A stretch of 12,746 bases of DNA. Source: Cytophagales bacterium. Its GTDB lineage: Bacteria; Bacteroidota; Bacteroidia; Cytophagales; Microscillaceae. The translations under genes and the position numbers were made by a program. The notes under the pieces are model-generated. The model ran no database searches. It saw nothing but the letters and a program-made list of their open reading frames with translations, and was not told where the DNA came from. The stretch is taken from positions 1 to 12,746 of the forward strand of contig JAAFIN010000147.1 of NCBI GenBank assembly GCA_013297825.1, written 5' to 3'. Shown here piece by piece: positions 1,626 through 11,521 of the stretch. How positions within the stretch are numbered: position 1 is the stretch's first letter; each line of letters opens with the position of its first letter.

Positions 1626-1683
1626 GGTTTAAAGTTTAAGGTTCAAAGTTCAAGGTTTAAGGTTCAAAGTTTAAGGTTTAAAA
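1626..1683 (+). repeat. Array of about 8 tandem RGTTYAA heptamers (ggtttaa agtttaa ggttcaa agttcaa ggtttaa ggttcaa agtttaa ggtttaa). It forms the left arm of the composite repeat element.
   Basis: Read directly from the sequence. The array abuts the ATG (1620) of the minus-strand gene at 1252..1620. Confidence 0.8.
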
Positions 1684-1700
1684 TTTAGTATGAGAATTTT

Positions 1701-2054
1701 ACTAAGTAATAAATAAATTTTAATAAATAGAAGATTTATTTTACTAAATACTAAATAAATTTTAATAAATAGAATATTTATTTTATTAAATAATAAACAA
1801 ATTCTACTAAATAGAAGATTTATTTTATTAAATAATAAATAAATTTTAATAAATAGAATATTTATTTTACTAAATAATAAACAAATTTTAATAAATAGAA
1901 TATTTATTTTATTAAATAATAAACAAATTCTACTAAATAGAAGATTTATTTTATTAAATAATAAATAAATTTTAATAAATAGAATATTTATTTTACTAAA
2001 TAATAAATAAATTTTAATAAATAGAAGATTTATTTTATTAAATAATAAATAAGT
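1701..2054. repeat. Non-coding tandem array of a 42-bp unit, about 8.4 copies, with a 126-bp (3-unit) higher-order duplication
   Basis: The anchor 'aaatagaa' recurs at 1725, 1767, 1809, 1851, 1893, 1935, 1977 and 2019, a period of exactly 42 bp. The unit consensus is aYtaaataataaaYaaattYtaMtaaatagaaKatttatttt. Units 3-4-5 (1785-1910) are near-identical to units 6-7-8 (1911-2036). Each unit carries a small hairpin (aataaat-agaag-atttatt). The array is full of TAA/TAG stops, so it is non-coding. Confidence 0.85.
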
Positions 2055-2100
2055 TTTAAACTTTGAACCTTAAACCTTAAACCTTGAACCTTAAACTTTC
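2051..2100 (-). repeat. Heptamer array in inverted orientation (TTRAACY x about 6). It forms the right arm of the composite repeat element and is an imperfect inverted repeat of 1626..1683.
   Basis: The reverse complement of 2051-2100 is gaa agtttaa ggttcaa ggtttaa ggtttaa ggttcaa agtttaa aactt. These are the same heptamer types as the left arm, in opposite orientation. The array abuts the stop codon (2100-2102) of lpxC/fabZ. Confidence 0.75.
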
Positions 2101-3491
2101 TAAGATTTCCTCACAATACTTGCAGAAAGCACCGCTTCACACACAAGTCCGCCACGCACATACGCCTCGCCTTTCATTTTGGCAATACCTCTGCGAATAG
2201 GATACAACAATTCACATTGAAAAGTAATAGTATCACCAGGTTGCACCATTTTTTTAAATCTACATTCATCAATAGAAAGCAAATATGCCCAATAATTTTC
2301 AGGGTCAGGCACCGTACTAAGCACCAAAATCCCCCCTGTTTGAGCCATTGCTTCTATTTGCAACACACCAGGCATTACAGGATTATTTGGGAAATGCCCC
2401 ATAAAAAAAGGCTCATTGATGGTTACATTTTTGATGCCTGCCACGCTTGTATCGTCCAAATGATAAATTCTATCCAACAATGCAAATGGGTATCTGTGTG
2501 GAAGAATATTAGCAATGTGCTTCACGTCCATCAAAATAGGCATATTTGGGTTATAATCAGGAATACGTTTTTTGCTTTCAAGAAGCATAGCTTGTCTGAT
2601 TTTTTTGGCAAGACCAACATTTGCAGCGTGTCCAGGACGAATTCCCATAATTTGGGCTTTTAGTGGTTTTCCTACAAGTGCAAGGTCGCCAATCACATCA
2701 AGGAGTTTGTGGCGAGCAGGTTCATTTTTAAATCTAAGCGTAATATTGCTTAAAGTACCTTCTTTGTCAATGGTAATTTTTGGTTTGCCCATTAGTTTAG
2801 CAAGTCGGTCAAGTTCTTCTTCTGGGAGGATTTTATCCACAATTACAATGGCATTATCCACATCACCACCTTTTATAAGATTAGCATTAAAAAGTGCTTC
2901 CAATTCGTGCAGAAACACAAAAGTACGACAATTCGCAATTTCATTTCTAAATTCTGAAATATGGCTAATGCTTGCGTGTTGGTTATTTACGATATTTGAA
3001 TTATAATCTACCATTACCACCACACGATAATCATTGAGAGGCATTGCTGAAATTTCTACGCCTCTTGCTTGGTCAGTAAATACAATATTTTCTTTTACTT
3101 CATAATAAATTCTTAAAGCATCTTGTTCTTGCAATCCTACACTTTCCAATGCTTCCACAAACATAATAGAACTTCCGTCCATAATAGGTGGTTCTGCTCC
3201 ATCAATTTGAATAAGCAAATTATCAATTCCCAATCCTACCAATGCAGCAAGCGTATGCTCTACAGTATGTACTCTTGCACCATTTTGTTCTATGGTCGTA
3301 CCACGTGAAGTATCCACTACATTGTCCGCAAGGGCATCAATAATGGGCTGATTAGGTAAATCCACCCTTTGAAACTTGTAACCGTGATTAGGAGGTGCAG
3401 GCACAAAAGTCATAGTAGTTAATGCCCCAGTATGAAGTCCTACACCTGCTACTTTTACGGATTGCTGAATGGTACATTGTTTGTGGCTCAT
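2100..3491 (-). CDS. lpxC/fabZ: Bifunctional UDP-3-O-acyl-N-acetylglucosamine deacetylase / 3-hydroxyacyl-ACP dehydratase (LpxC/FabZ fusion, as is typical of Bacteroidota)
   Basis: The ORF is 463 aa. The N-terminal about 300 aa are LpxC-like ([27 protein letters not shown]..., [10 protein letters not shown]..., zinc-deacetylase fold motifs). The C-terminal about 150 aa are FabZ, carrying the hallmark [13 protein letters not shown] and [23 protein letters not shown] motifs. Confidence 0.9.
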
Positions 3492-9372: not shown

Positions 9373-10803
9373 ATGAAAAATTTTCTTCTAATTCATTTAC
9401 TATTTTTTGGAATTTTTTTATTTTCCAACAAAATATTTGCACAATCAAATTTGGACAAAGTACCATTTTATTTGTCAGTAGAAAGTGCATTGAAAGAACC
9501 TGATAAAGTACGAAAATTAGACCTTACTTGGCAATATATGCTTCAACTTCCTGAAAGCATTACCAAATTGCCCAATGTAGAAGTGTTAAATTTGGGTTGG
9601 AACAAACTTACCGTTTTGCCCCAAAACATAACTTCTATGTCTAAATTAAGACAAATCGCATTAAACGATAACCCAAAACTTAATTTGGCGGTTGTTTGTA
9701 AATTATTAGGGAAAATAAAATCTTTGAGAGAACTTTATATTGGTTGGCAACAAATGAAAGATATTCCTGATGAACTTGCAGATATGCAATATTTGGAAAA
9801 ATTGGATATTTTGTGCGATTCTACGCTCAGTCTTCCACACGTACTTTCGGTAATTGGCAAATTAAAACGCCTAAATAGTTTGGGGCTTGCACGTAATCAC
9901 TTATCTGAATTACATGAGAATATTGGAACACTTGTCAATCTTTCTGCATTAGATTTGAGTATTAACCAACTTAAAGCATTACCAAGCCAAATGGGAAAAT
10001 TACGTAATTTGCGTATTTTAAACCTCAAAAATAACGAATTACCAGATATTCCTTCTTGTCTTACGAGTATGAGTGATTTGGAAAATCTAAATATGGCAGG
10101 CAATAAGTTAGACCAACTTTCAAGCAGAATTGGCTCATTTTCAAGCCTTAGAATGTTGGATTTGAGCGAAAATTATTTAAAAACTATTTCAGGTAGAATT
10201 TTTGACCTCAAAAGCCTTAGAAGCCTTAATCTTGCCAATAATAGCATAGAACAAGTGCCTTCAAGCATCAGCAACCTTACAAAATTAGAATATCTCAATC
10301 TCAATCGTAACAGTACCAAAGAACTTCCTTCAAGCATTACACACTTTAAACATCTTCAAACGCTTGAACTTGCAGGAAATCCAGATGTTAATTTTTTAAA
10401 ATTTTTTCAAGGAACACACCATTTTTTTCCTGAATTATACAATCTTAATTTAAGCGAAAACAAACTTGATTCTATTTCTGCGAATGTTGGCAATATAAAA
10501 ACACTTCAAATTCTCAAACTTTCTAATAATGCGATTACAGGCTTGCCAAGCAGTTTTGAAAAATTGCATAGTTTGCAAGAACTTTATCTAAATAATAACC
10601 AACTCAAAGAATTTCCAGAGGAAATTTTGAGTATGGGCAATTTAGAAAAACTTGTATTGGATTTTAATAAAATTGGTTATATTCCTGAAGAAATTAAAAA
10701 ATTGAAAAAATTAAAGGAAATTTCTATGAAATTTAATCCTTTGTCTGAAAAACAAATTGAAAAACTTAAAACGCTTTTGCCAGAAGTAAAGATTGTAATT
10801 TAA
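9373..10803 (+). CDS. Secreted leucine-rich repeat (LRR) protein, eukaryote-like (SHOC2/RSU1-type LRRs). A candidate host-interaction effector.
   Basis: The ORF is 476 aa. It has a classical Sec signal peptide (MKNFLLIHLLFFGIFLFSNKIFA|Q). This is followed by about 17 consecutive 22-24-aa repeats of the form LxxLxxLxLxxNxLxxLPxxIxxL, for example LSALDLSINQLKALPSQMGKLRNLRILNLKNNELPDIPSCLTSMSDLENLNMAGNKLDQL. Confidence 0.85.
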   Translation: MKNFLLIHLLFFGIFLFSNKIFAQSNLDKVPFYLSVESALKEPDKVRKLDLTWQYMLQLPESITKLPNVEVLNLGWNKLTVLPQNITSMSKLRQIALNDNPKLNLAVVCKLLGKIKSLRELYIGWQQMKDIPDELADMQYLEKLDILCDSTLSLPHVLSVIGKLKRLNSLGLARNHLSELHENIGTLVNLSALDLSINQLKALPSQMGKLRNLRILNLKNNELPDIPSCLTSMSDLENLNMAGNKLDQLSSRIGSFSSLRMLDLSENYLKTISGRIFDLKSLRSLNLANNSIEQVPSSISNLTKLEYLNLNRNSTKELPSSITHFKHLQTLELAGNPDVNFLKFFQGTHHFFPELYNLNLSENKLDSISANVGNIKTLQILKLSNNAITGLPSSFEKLHSLQELYLNNNQLKEFPEEILSMGNLEKLVLDFNKIGYIPEEIKKLKKLKEISMKFNPLSEKQIEKLKTLLPEVKIVI

Positions 10804-10832
10804 GAAAGTTTAAGGTTAAAAAATTCAGGTTT

Positions 10833-11456
10833 TTAAATTTTTATAAATAAATCCAACAAATCATCAGCTTTTTGTGTAGCAAAAACGTGTATGCCAAGAC
10901 TTAAAGCTGTATTTCTATTATCCAAATTATCATCTACAAAAAGCGTTTCTGCTGGTAAAATATTTTGTTCTGTTAATACCTGCAAAAAAATATCTGCGTC
11001 AGGCTTGCGTTTTCCCATATCTTGCGAATAATAAGCGTGTGTAAAAAGCGTTTTGAAATCATAGCCAAACTGCTTCAAAAAATCCTGCTCAAATGCCCTT
11101 GCGTGCATACTATTTGTATTGCTCAACAAAAAAATCTTGTATTTGCCTTGTGCTTGTAACATTTCCAAAAACTTTACGTTTTTGGTAGGAAAAGACAATA
11201 AAAGTGCGTTCCAAGCGTGTTCTATTTCTTCAAAAGAGGCTTTTATACCAAAACTTTCACAAAGATTTTCATAAAAATTTTGTTCAGAAATCAATCCTTT
11301 TTCAAGTTGTTGAAATAGCGGATTAAAATACAAATTTGTTGTAACTTTGGTATTTAATTTGCCACTCTTTACCAAAAGTCTTTCAAATGCTTGATTGCTT
11401 AGTGTGTAATCAATAGGCAAAATCACATTGCCCAAGTCAAAAATAATGTTTTTCAA
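10833..11456 (-). CDS. HAD-superfamily hydrolase (subfamily IA-like, nucleotidase/phosphatase type); TTG start codon
   Basis: The ORF is 207 aa. Motif I is FDLGNV (DxG) at residues 6-11. Motif II is LSNTNS. Motifs III/IV are K…FVDDNLDN. The reverse complement of 11454-11456 is TTG. An in-frame stop lies 3 codons upstream and no in-frame ATG precedes motif I, so TTG is the only possible start. Confidence 0.8.
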   Translation of the reverse strand: MKNIIFDLGNVILPIDYTLSNQAFERLLVKSGKLNTKVTTNLYFNPLFQQLEKGLISEQNFYENLCESFGIKASFEEIEHAWNALLLSFPTKNVKFLEMLQAQGKYKIFLLSNTNSMHARAFEQDFLKQFGYDFKTLFTHAYYSQDMGKRKPDADIFLQVLTEQNILPAETLFVDDNLDNRNTALSLGIHVFATQKADDLLDLFIKI

Positions 11457-11521
11457 GGAAGTTTAAAAAGTTTAAGGTTTAAAAGTTCAAGGTTCAAAAG
11501 TTCAAGGTTCAAAGTTTAAAA
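11457..11521 (+). repeat. RGTTYAA/AAGTTYAA heptamer-octamer array (about 8 units) abutting the HAD gene start
   Basis: ggaagtttaa aaagtttaa ggtttaa aagttcaa ggttcaa aagttcaa ggttcaa agtttaa aaaaatcc. It is the same family as 1626..1683. Confidence 0.7.

Follow-up and report, generated by a model that had tools for sequence, protein, structure and literature searches.

Why should tandem copies of one AT-rich heptamer, RGTTYAA, lie against start and stop codons along a contig of a Cytophagales bacterium, and do they act there as a regulatory element? The window (the whole stretch of 12,746 nucleotides analyzed) had been described from its letters alone as holding five such arrays. All five were found, at or a few bases off the sites described, and none was more than 5 nt from a start or stop codon, in line with the claim that each abuts one. 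Array A (1626..1681, plus strand) has eight perfect RGTTYAA units and leaves a gap of 5 nt to the ATG (at 1620) of a gene on the minus strand (ORF 1252-1620); read in the sense of that gene, it is (TTRAACY)8 followed by TTTTT-ATG. Its convergent partner, array B (2056..2097, minus strand), has six perfect units and begins 2 nt past the TAG stop of lpxC/fabZ (2100-2102). Array C (3686..3765, minus strand) consists of about nine units of 7-9 nt each, mostly AGCTCAA(A) and RGTTCAA(A), and overlaps the TAA stop (3764-3766) of a 253-aa gene (3764-4525); by sequence, it is related to RGTTYAA without conforming to it strictly. Array D (10807..10832, plus strand) occupies the 29 nt that separate the stops of the convergent LRR and HAD genes and is decayed (AGTTTAA, GGTTAAA, AAATTCA, GGTTT), with one perfect unit, two or three decayed ones, and a single match, with one mismatch, in the doubled-unit scan. 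Array E (11461..11520, plus strand) has eight units, three 1-nt insertions (extra A's), and a 15-nt super-period; in the sense of HAD, it reads TTRAACY and runs into the TTG start of this gene (11454-11456), whose Pfam HAD domains begin at residue 1-4. Three of the five arrays follow stop codons, and the flanked genes (lpxC/fabZ, HAD phosphatase) are housekeeping or unremarkable.

The window holds further repeats. An AT-rich tandem array (1696..2059; 42-bp unit x 8.7, 126-bp super-unit; TRF, 91-96% matches) is flanked by A and B as convergent arms. A second heptamer family, TAATTCT, which is the reverse complement of the TTARGAA family, is repeated 7.3 times at 6029..6079 (plus strand) and stops 2 nt short of the ATG of an MVP-like gene; this leader contains no G and is predicted to be unstructured (0.0 kcal/mol). 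Directly after array E, in the region 11522..11592, come two short plus-strand arrays, AATCCTGTT x4 (11523-11557) and CATTCAA x2.6 (11575-11592), and AGTAGTC-type heptamers (x3.3, 12389..12411, plus strand) begin 5 nt past the stop of a T9SS-tail gene (11955-12383). The sequence-only reading had not mentioned TAATTCT, CATTCAA, AGTAGTC, the convergence of A and B round the 42-bp block, or the polarity that the arrays share. It had proposed recombination hot spots; the 127-bp and 42/126-bp tandem duplications nearby do not demonstrate that the heptamers are such hot spots, and they are consistent with a slippage-prone genome.

Chance, low-complexity composition, or an assembly artifact could be suspected in a MAG contig that is AT-rich (~30% GC). 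However, RGTTYAA x2 with at most one mismatch gave 19 matches in the window against 0.45 expected, a number reached by 0 of 200 shuffles. Gene ends were verified via ORFs and Pfam, and enrichment at these ends was evaluated by random placement of five arrays of the same lengths in the intergenic 17% of the window; in 0 of 100,000 placements were all five at most 5 nt from a gene end. Independent Logan contigs matched the window letter for letter in array D and in part of array B (contig L121 contains array D, and contig L001 breaks off inside array B, 28 nt in), and the same arrays recurred in hundreds of unrelated assemblies among the matches listed. The shuffles, the placements, the independent assembly, and the other assemblies refute this explanation, to which we give practically no weight.

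Far from being confined to the window, (RGTTYAA)x4 arrays were present in more than 100 GTDB genomes of many phyla, and the heptamer occurred in genomes of 29% to 69% GC among the matches listed. The proposal of a dispersed short-repeat family at gene boundaries is borne out by the window and by these genomes; for the source genome, we infer genome-wide spread from the window, the contig break inside array B, and the other genomes. A comparison set of 119 loci from genomes carrying RGTTYAA arrays contained 270 period-7 arrays vs 5 hexamer and 36 octamer arrays. Among the 270, 116 represented 92 motifs other than RGTTYAA, and dozens of unrelated heptamer motifs in these genomes obeyed the same positional rule. 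The control set, chosen through LpxC/FabZ relatives without regard to arrays (80 loci, 1.1 Mb), had only nine heptamer arrays and no RGTTYAA x2. In viral contigs, there were 92 RGTTYAA arrays vs 54, 52, and 24 arrays of scrambled heptamers (2-4 times rarer). Genes flanking the arrays in other genomes were diverse: no protein family recurred beside them in the 119 loci. No RAYT or transposase gene was found in the window or near arrays in those loci, and Pfam revealed no DNA-binding gene in the window.

When orientation was checked against the flanking genes, polarity was consistent: the 5' end of the RGTTYAA strand faced the gene in all five arrays of the window, and likewise across phyla. Of the RGTTYAA-sense cases, 42 of 90 had a stop codon at -3..+10 nt from the array, vs 3 of 75 for the TTRAACY sense; for starts within 20 nt (ATG-only), the counts were 21/72 vs 3/70. 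About one-third of RGTTYAA arrays had a convergent partner, and paired arrays were convergent in 65 cases and divergent in none. For GGGAATC and GGGGAYT, this orientation rule is already in the literature (Rehm et al., 2015, PMC4692102). RGTTYAA and certain further natural motifs often paired convergently, vs 1 of 124 scrambled control arrays, a near-absence that hints at something beyond generic slippage. Array ends are fuzzy on the outer side and sharp on the inner side, where they terminate in RGTT; in convergent pairs, the 5' arm is A-richer and the 3' arm T-richer. The inverted arms of A/B (42-66 nt) are 82-93% complementary and are predicted to form a 44-bp stem (-120 kcal/mol, z = -11). 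Pairs in other genomes span the stop-to-start spacer with gaps of at most 10 nt and gave -33 to -55 kcal/mol where the span did not exceed 111 nt. Two MAGs, one of Desulfobacterales (L016) and one of Acidobacteria (L047), show inverted complementarity that extends inward from the arrays. Single arrays had no predicted self-structure. Sense and antisense strands of the pairs folded equally well, and the R/Y patterns of the arms agreed no better than in shuffled units, which gives no sign of selection for RNA pairing.

Orthologous loci showed how the arrays vary. Array E, with ~8 units here, has 3-4 in L427 and L428 (89% aa) and one in L429 (79% aa), at the identical site and in the identical orientation. 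Arrays A and C and the 42-bp block are not present in the ~90%-identical syntenic ortholog L426. At the position of array A this locus has ATAAACTTTTTTATG only, its spacer measures 115 nt vs 479 nt here, and its lpxC/fabZ stop carries (TTAAGAA)4.3 where array B sits here. The promoter-like block downstream of array C is conserved in L426, with array C itself missing, and such conserved blocks fall outside the arrays. The TAATTCT family is found in relatives too, as the (TTAAGAA)4.3 of L426, as TCCTAAT x2 in L424, where it ends 2 nt ahead of an ATG, and in L431 as AATTAGG x4.3 at a stop; AGTAGTC heptamers were not found at the homologous gene end in L424. Conservation, which the sequence-only reading had set as a check, did not hold in close relatives, where arrays are absent, shorter, or swapped for another motif, and this argues against gene-specific regulation. 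The orthologous loci point to arrays that grow in place and turn over fast. Indels in 7-nt steps occur among Cyanothece strains (PMC4679880), and heptamer array length differs between Xanthomonas species (PMC4692102).

We consider it reasonably probable that the arrays are slippage-born heptanucleotide repeats, a filler that would be sorted by orientation in transcripts and whose function is putative. It is well supported that a 7-nt seed beside a stop or start codon is duplicated through slipped-strand mispairing in replication and that the array then lengthens and shortens in place, its gene-side end pinned because coding sequence cannot be invaded. It is likewise well supported that the source genome belongs to a scattered minority of bacteria that are unusually permissive for 7-nt slippage, and hence carries several unrelated heptamer motifs and larger tandem duplications. 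Probably no dedicated binding protein would be needed. Pure slippage alone does not predict the strict orientation rule, and the surviving orientation may be selected at the transcript level. Ahead of a start codon, the mRNA would be (UURAACY)n, G-poor and predicted to be unstructured, with a stop codon in each unit and hence stops in all three frames; such a leader may suit the Shine-Dalgarno-independent initiation of Bacteroidota. Past a stop codon, the mRNA would be (RGUUYAA)n. Arrays at both ends of one spacer would necessarily be convergent and able to pair into a long REP-type stem, which might be cut by RNase III, hold up 3' exonucleases, or mask the downstream start until a terminating ribosome opened it. 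The equal folding of both pair strands and the chance-level R/Y match of the arms were counted against this transcript reading.

Transcription termination or insulation at gene ends, one of the roles first suggested, is improbable. The location at gene boundaries agrees with it, and the A-richer 5' and T-richer 3' arms of convergent pairs resemble bidirectional terminators, of which the one at 8595-8632 holds CTTTGAA and TTCAAAG within its stem. However, a consensus terminator scan of the window detected clean bidirectional terminators at 5168-5207 and 8595-8632, and a further clean one at 12549-12578, and nothing at any array. Moreover, single arrays are unstructured, the A/B stem is not followed by a U-tract, and pairs in other genomes have a start codon within 10 nt after them, so that such pairs sit inside operons. 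An Rfam search gave no match for the arrays. It is very doubtful that they are contingency loci whose copy number switches or tunes the adjacent gene (compare H. influenzae hmw1A with its upstream 7-bp repeats), even though arrays A, E, and TAATTCT lie directly upstream of start codons, unit number varies between relatives, and heptamer-based tuning is on record (PMC8262952, PMC12721329). Against it stand the arrays that follow stop codons, the promoter-like blocks conserved outside the arrays, and the housekeeping or diverse nature of the flanked genes, for which neither Rehm (PMC4692102) nor MacGregor (PMC4679880) found a functional bias.

Equally slight is the probability of a mobile REP/BIME-like or MITE-like element, with A/B and its AT-rich core as a non-autonomous transposon and single arrays as solo ends. 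The complementary A/B arms, the absence of the entire A and core segment from L426, the inward complementarity in L016 and L047, and the coincidence of arrays with assembly breaks would suit it, but A/B shows no target-site duplication (flanks CATAAAAA and TTCTAAGA), its interior is itself a tandem array without a conserved core, and fuzzy outer with sharp inner ends are the reverse of transposon ends. Array E also changes stepwise in place (1, 3-4, 8 units), arm R/Y similarity is at chance level, there is no transposase or RAYT gene nearby, and no REP or MITE hallmark was found for the arrays. Somewhat less unlikely are binding-site arrays for a sequence-specific factor, either a DNA binder that, like the omega repressor on its heptads, polymerizes along 7-bp repeats, an iteron or nucleoid protein, or an RNA-binding translational regulator (S1, Csp, CsrA), which MacGregor proposed for TAACTGA. 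The 7-bp register with strict convergence (65 to 0) is expected of a directional DNA binder, arrays adjoin start codons at the ribosome-binding-site position as in Beggiatoaceae (PMC4679880), and Nostoc reporter data suggest that heptamers modulate LexA and NtcA action (bioRxiv 2022.06.06.494920). The recurrence of one heptamer over so wide a GC range among the matches listed also speaks for a factor. Nevertheless, the iteron proposal has no partner protein, as neither the window nor the surroundings of arrays in the 119 loci supplied a candidate. Dozens of unrelated motifs with the same rule would call for many factors or one sequence-blind factor, close relatives gain, lose, or swap arrays at housekeeping genes, and scrambled arrays are nearly as common.

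REPs are imperfect palindromes of ~35 nt with a conserved GTAG, mobilized by RAYT transposases. The proposed analogy with REP/BIME stands as a functional likeness of the convergent A/B pair, which alone shares with E. coli REP/BIME the extragenic position, often between co-directional genes, and the mRNA hairpin; it fails for the conserved palindromic unit, GTAG, and RAYT gene, since the arrays are tandem 7-mers without self-complementarity that would grow in place. The omega repressor heptads of Inc18 plasmids (WATCACW) occur at a few plasmid promoters beside the omega gene. RGTTYAA resembles them in contiguous 7-bp repeats, direct or convergent, with the divergent arrangement disfavored, and differs in having no cognate gene, a chromosomal location, many motifs, and housekeeping genes as neighbors.

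The arrays belong with the intergenic simple-sequence repeats of heptanucleotide unit, a known class (STRRs, LSSRs, TAACTGA, GGGAATC) that the sequence-only reading did not name. RGTTYAA did not turn up in the literature that could be searched and is a new sequence variant of this long-known class, not a new kind of regulatory element. Cyanobacterial STRR sequences were reportedly described by Mazel et al. in 1990. Mrázek et al. (2007) reportedly found heptamers to be the most abundant long-SSR class and proposed slippage by the polymerase as the cause, with the polymerase footprint as no more than a hypothesis for the 7-nt preference. Like STRRs and LSSRs, our arrays comprise several different tandem heptamers per genome, mostly intergenic; unlike them, the host is an AT-rich Bacteroidota MAG and the motif is RGTTYAA.

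TAACTGA repeats occur in Beggiatoaceae, cyanobacteria, and five Bacteroidetes including Flexibacter litoralis, a few nt before start codons in place of the Shine-Dalgarno site; of the 14 sets of F. litoralis, 12 precede a start codon by 1-43 nt (MacGregor, 2015, PMC4679880). RGTTYAA shares with them stop codons in every unit, intermixed heptamers, assembly breaks at arrays, and a sporadic phylogenetic distribution. The motif differs, as does the position of three of the five window arrays after stop codons, and the convergent partner of about one-third of RGTTYAA arrays contrasts with one inverted pair among 170 TAACTGA sets in BOGUAY (PMC4679880). The GGGAATC repeats of Xanthomonas and GGGGAYT of Nostoc are dispersed tandem heptamers, typically of four or more units and ~90% intergenic, with 70-75 convergent pairs per genome and with length and sequence that differ among related species (Rehm et al., 2015, PMC4692102). 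Tandem and dispersed arrangement, predominantly intergenic location, convergent pairs, unbiased flanking genes, and variation between species are common to RGTTYAA. Unlike these motifs, RGTTYAA is AT-rich and unable to form G-quadruplexes or i-motifs, so the positional rule that it has in common with GGGAATC is not due to G-quadruplexes, and it extends over many phyla among the matches listed, vs one genus for GGGAATC.

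Tandem Repeats Finder and a pattern search recovered all five RGTTYAA arrays that the sequence-only reading had placed at gene boundaries. Array A (1626-1681, plus strand) has eight perfect units and array B (2056-2097, minus strand) has six. Array C (3686-3765, minus strand) is of variant unit length, with about nine units of 7-9 nt, mostly AGCTCAA(A) or RGTTCAA(A); array D (10807-10832) is decayed, and array E (11461-11520) consists of eight units plus three extra A's. Adjacent RGTTYAA doublets, with at most one mismatch, occurred 19 times against 0.45 expected, and none of 200 shuffles reached 19. 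All five arrays sit in the intergenic 17% of the window. With gene ends set by ORFs and Pfam, the gaps to the gene were, from A to E, 5, 2, 2 (the stop codon being overlapped), 0, and 4 nt. When five arrays of the same lengths were dropped into the 2,209 intergenic bases of the window, none of 100,000 random placements put all five within 5 nt of a gene end, and their abutment on genes is thus beyond chance. Two arrays abut starts and three abut stops; the adjoining genes are housekeeping genes, and those flanked are lpxC/fabZ, HAD, LRR, and the gene of a putative outer-membrane protein. The end that touches the gene is the 5' end of the RGTTYAA strand in all five. The observation is real and statistically solid.

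The window has about 30% G+C and is Bacteroidota-like in that it encodes an LpxC-FabZ fusion protein and a protein with a T9SS C-terminal sorting domain. Independent Logan contigs were identical to it over 2070-3590 and 8604-11063, and one of them breaks off within array B after 28 nt, which a repeated k-mer would lead one to expect. As a practical caution, heptamer arrays break short-read assemblies; gene calling in MAGs is affected as well, because the arrays bring stop and TTG start codons to the ends of genes. The Logan contig L001 ends inside a segment of about 56 nt (3545-3600) that holds a perfect palindrome (AAACCTATAAGGTTTTTAAAACCTTATAGGTTT) and is inserted upstream of lpxC/fabZ relative to the syntenic ortholog L426.

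A dispersed family was confirmed beyond the window: a scan of one genome per GTDB species for (RGTTYAA)x4 gave at least 119 stretches (833 kb) from many phyla. Those among the matches listed included Bacteroidota, Acidobacteriota, Verrucomicrobiota, Planctomycetota, Desulfobacterota, Nitrospirota, Chloroflexota, CPR, and others, with a G+C content of 29% to 69%. Positional counts were taken from these anchored loci, that is, among the matches listed. With RGTTYAA on the sense strand of the gene, a stop codon lay within -3 to +10 nt of the array in 42 of 90 cases; in the opposite orientation (TTRAACY sense) this was so in 3 of 75, plus 14 with the stop inside the array. Conversely, arrays with TTRAACY on the sense strand ended within 20 nt of a start in 21 of 72 cases, against 3 of 70 in the other orientation (ATG starts only). 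The stop-side and start-side counts both reduce to a single rule, by which the RGTTYAA strand has its 5' end toward the ORF, regardless of the direction of the ORF. The gap was at most 10 nt at 44% of array 5' ends and at 9% of 3' ends among the matches listed, and the far end is usually a partial unit, RGTT. All five arrays of the window follow this rule.

It follows from this rule that two arrays in one spacer must be convergent. Neighboring arrays not more than 700 nt apart were convergent in 22 of 22 cases among the matches listed. With a decayed partner allowed and a distance of up to 150 nt, convergent cases numbered 48 in bacterial loci (among the matches listed) and 17 in viral ones, and there was no divergent pair. 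Pairing extends to other natural motifs of these genomes (22 of 103 among the matches listed), and scrambled control arrays were paired in only 1 of 124. The window (6029-6079) and its relatives (L426 2405-2434; L431 1884-1929 and 8246-8275; L424 11608-11622) also have a second heptamer family in common, TTARGAA (reverse complement TYCTTAA / TAATTCT). It follows the same rule: its purine-rich strand is read after a stop and its pyrimidine-rich strand ahead of a start.

The origin of the arrays was approached through L426, a JGI contig reached via the lpxC/fabZ protein cluster, whose nucleotide identity to the window is 90% over lpxC/fabZ and 86% over the gene upstream. In L426, the spacer from the lpxC/fabZ stop to the next gene has 115 nt, against 479 nt in the window; it contains neither array A nor the 42-bp block described below, and it ends in ATAAACTTTTTTATG, a plausible seed. 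At the lpxC stop, L426 has (TTAAGAA)4.3, beginning inside the stop codon, in place of the (RGTTYAA)6 of the window. Array C is missing, and a promoter-like block further downstream is conserved. Conservation of the arrays in related genomes therefore did not hold, since close relatives have lost or replaced them (A and C absent, the motif of B swapped), which argues against gene-specific regulation. The site of array E has about eight units in the window and three to four TTRAACY units, in the same place and orientation, in a relative with an 89% identical HAD protein; a 79% relative has a single TTAAACC. This clean stepwise series of one, three to four, and eight units, grown in place at one start codon, is what slipped-strand mispairing predicts, and 7-nt-step indels are reported between Cyanothece strains (MacGregor, PMC4679880). 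Unlike the arrays around them, blocks that carry TTTG...TAATTTTG-type motifs are conserved in relatives (window 3615-3665 vs. L426; window 11895-11945 vs. L424 2700-2750). They probably represent the actual Bacteroidota promoters of lpxC/fabZ and the T9SS-tail gene.

The window holds further heptamer motifs, found with Tandem Repeats Finder. Seven TAATTCT units (6029-6079) stop 2 nt short of the ATG of the MVP-like gene, array E is directly followed by CATTCAA and AATCCTGTT units, and AGTAGTC-type units come after the stop at 12383. The product of the MVP-like gene (6082-8571, plus strand) is a bacterial MVP-like protein of 829 aa, in which a vault repeat, a Major Vault Protein shoulder domain (E = 1.4e-31), and a match to SPFH/Band-7 were identified; this protein is the sole member of its 90% cluster. 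Arrays A and B are convergent arms around a 42-bp AT-rich tandem block (1696-2059; 8.7 copies, 126-bp super-unit, 16% G+C). A perfect 127-bp tandem duplication (1188-1441; 2.0 copies, 100% identity) frameshifts a 148-aa ORF (MKIFTFEF...YWENF) into two overlapping ORFs; with one copy taken out, the frame is intact again. The duplication either arose very recently or is an error of assembly. This duplication and the 42-bp block fit a genome that tolerates or generates tandem duplications.

The analogy with REP/BIME elements drawn in the sequence-only reading is apt for the A/B pair only, where the whole spacer between lpxC/fabZ and the next gene, as RNA, has a predicted 44-bp stem (-120 kcal/mol, z = -11). 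The arrays have no self-folding palindromic unit, and single arrays fold no better than shuffles (predicted 0 to -6 kcal/mol); no RAYT (IS200/IS605-like) transposase was found in the window or beside the arrays in the 119 loci among the matches listed. The alternative of an iteron-like array for a DNA-binding protein is unsupported, as Pfam found no DNA-binding or Rep protein in the window. No link to a mobile element or a partner gene emerged either: all-against-all BLAST of 446 adjoining ORFs from the 119 loci among the matches listed gave no recurrent protein family near the arrays. Nor does A/B resemble a MITE, having no target-site duplication, fuzzy outer ends, and a tandem array as its core. 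Inverted complementarity does extend inward from the heptamer arms in a Desulfobacterales MAG (L016 88-3759) and in L047 (2103-2551), e.g., AGTTAGGAGTGCGCCCCTTTTCATG ... CATGAAAAGGGGCGCACTCCTAACT; this arm-plus-flank arrangement recurs three times in 4 kb, and these loci look like MITE-like composite elements. In an Acidobacteriota MAG (L038 2300-2800) there are four tandem modules of about 100 bp, each with (AGTTCAA)3-4 and then AGTTGAGAAY, and AGTT[AG]AGAAY follows arrays in several other Acidobacteriota loci (L008, L030, L061), which suggests a lineage-specific composite repeat.

A role in transcription termination, also put forward from the sequence, was not borne out. A scan of the window for G+C-rich short-loop hairpins with a U-tract picked out nine sites that resemble terminators. 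None of them coincides with an array, and the strongest are those at 5168-5207, 8595-8632, and 12549-12578. The first two are canonical bidirectional intrinsic terminators between convergent genes, and the stem at 8595-8632 holds CTTTGAA and TTCAAAG, one heptamer-family unit in the opposite (divergent) polarity. With or without an additional -33 TTTG, the Bacteroidota promoter motif TAnnTTTG occurred in the window hardly more often than chance would predict, and it gives no position of the arrays with respect to promoters; sigma-70-like matches inside the 42-bp repeats are composition effects. The integron attC core (GTTRRRY, inverse core RYYYAAC) has the opposite polarity, and neither the IHF consensus nor the tRNA T-loop fits the heptamer. 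As to selection on hairpins at the RNA level, the pairs showed no preference in fold energy between sense and antisense (11 against 6). R/Y matching between arms is no better than with shuffled units (0.89 vs. 0.87), so that the apparent shared R/Y order of arms A and B is not significant, and the arms do not covary. In viral contigs, a set rich in giant-virus bins and thus an imperfect control, scrambled heptamer arrays were only 2-4 times rarer than RGTTYAA, and their gene-end asymmetry was noisy. Nothing points to a dedicated reader of the RGTTYAA sequence, given that the arrays match no Rfam family, lack terminators, structure (as single arrays), a recurrent neighboring family, and a DNA-binding gene in the window, and show neither strand preference nor arm covariation, and that scrambled arrays are nearly as common.

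The arrays are heptanucleotide simple-sequence repeats that expand in place beside stop and start codons. We infer that the orientation that persists would be the one tolerated by the transcript. Before a start, the array would give a G-poor, pyrimidine-richer leader, predicted to be unstructured and with a stop codon in every unit, which may suit initiation independent of a Shine-Dalgarno sequence, the mode of initiation in Bacteroidota. After a stop it would give the complementary, purine-richer sequence. Convergent pairs would then form long stems from the stop codon to the next start; about ten pairs among the matches listed span this distance with gaps of at most 10 nt. Like a REP hairpin, such a stem might be a substrate for RNase III, a barrier to exonucleases, or a mask of the downstream start that is opened by the terminating ribosome. 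We consider the part of this explanation that concerns identity and origin very probable and the functional part tentative; for the explanation as a whole, the balance is modestly favorable.

Among the matches listed (833 kb), period 7 dominates with 270 arrays, periods 6 and 8 accounting for 5 and 36, and 116 of the 270 represent 92 motifs other than RGTTYAA. An array-blind sample of 80 metagenome loci with LpxC/FabZ relatives (1.1 Mb) had only nine heptamer arrays, no period-7 peak, and no RGTTYAA doublet. Because array-anchored loci are rich in period 7 and array-blind loci are not, it is scattered genomes, that of the window among them, that are rich in heptamer arrays.

Bacterial heptamer arrays have been noted since 1990 and counted genome-wide since 2007; to our knowledge, neither their function nor their cause has been established to date. 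The features of the known STRR / LSSR class were found here: a head-to-tail 7-nt unit in at least three copies (8 in A, 6 in B, 8 in E); several dispersed loci (five), nearly all outside coding sequence; unrelated heptamer motifs in the window and dominance of period 7 in the anchored loci among the matches listed; unit numbers that vary at the same site between related genomes; and, as in the published rule for GGGAATC, convergent pairs and a 5' side nearer the ORF. Of 155 arrays from other genomes among the matches listed, 17 lie inside long ORFs; a run in Galbibacter sp. EGI 63066 (L101 7787-7996) has 30 uninterrupted GGTTYAA units (210 bp), GGTTTAA in the first half and GGTTCAA in the second. 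Motif strings of RGTTYAA in the searchable literature returned unrelated primers only. RGTTYAA adds a new motif to a known heptamer class and is no new category of element. Its restriction to scattered array-rich genomes agrees with the literature, where heptanucleotides are described as the most abundant class of long simple-sequence repeats and as sporadically distributed (Mrázek 2007, quoted in both PMC4679880 and PMC4692102).

The positional rule is common to unrelated motifs (RGTTYAA, TTARGAA, GGGAATC, AGTGGTC, and others) in many phyla: seen from the ORF, the purine-richer strand always points outward, pairs are always convergent, and arrays begin at a stop or start codon. It is unlikely that this reflects one conserved process, either directional 7-nt slippage tied to ORF ends or a sequence-tolerant factor that uses arrays as gene punctuation, which could act, for example, by termination-dependent unmasking of the next start codon. 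If true, RGTTYAA would be the first pan-bacterial member without G-quadruplex ability and a handle for finding the process.

The STRRs of cyanobacteria, the TAACTGA repeats of Beggiatoaceae, cyanobacteria, and five Bacteroidetes, which abut start codons, and GGGAATC of Xanthomonas belong to the same heptanucleotide class. GGGAATC forms 70-75 convergent pairs per genome, at a mean distance of 28 nt to the 5' neighboring ORF and 160 nt to the downstream ORF (Rehm et al., PMC4692102). The gene-end and convergence rules of the G-rich repeats of Xanthomonas and Nostoc apply also to RGTTYAA, an AT-rich motif found in many phyla; since it cannot form G-quadruplexes, their formation is removed as an explanation of these rules. 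The rules themselves were already described by Rehm et al. (PMC4692102), and what is added here is an AT-rich motif without G-quadruplex potential that obeys them.
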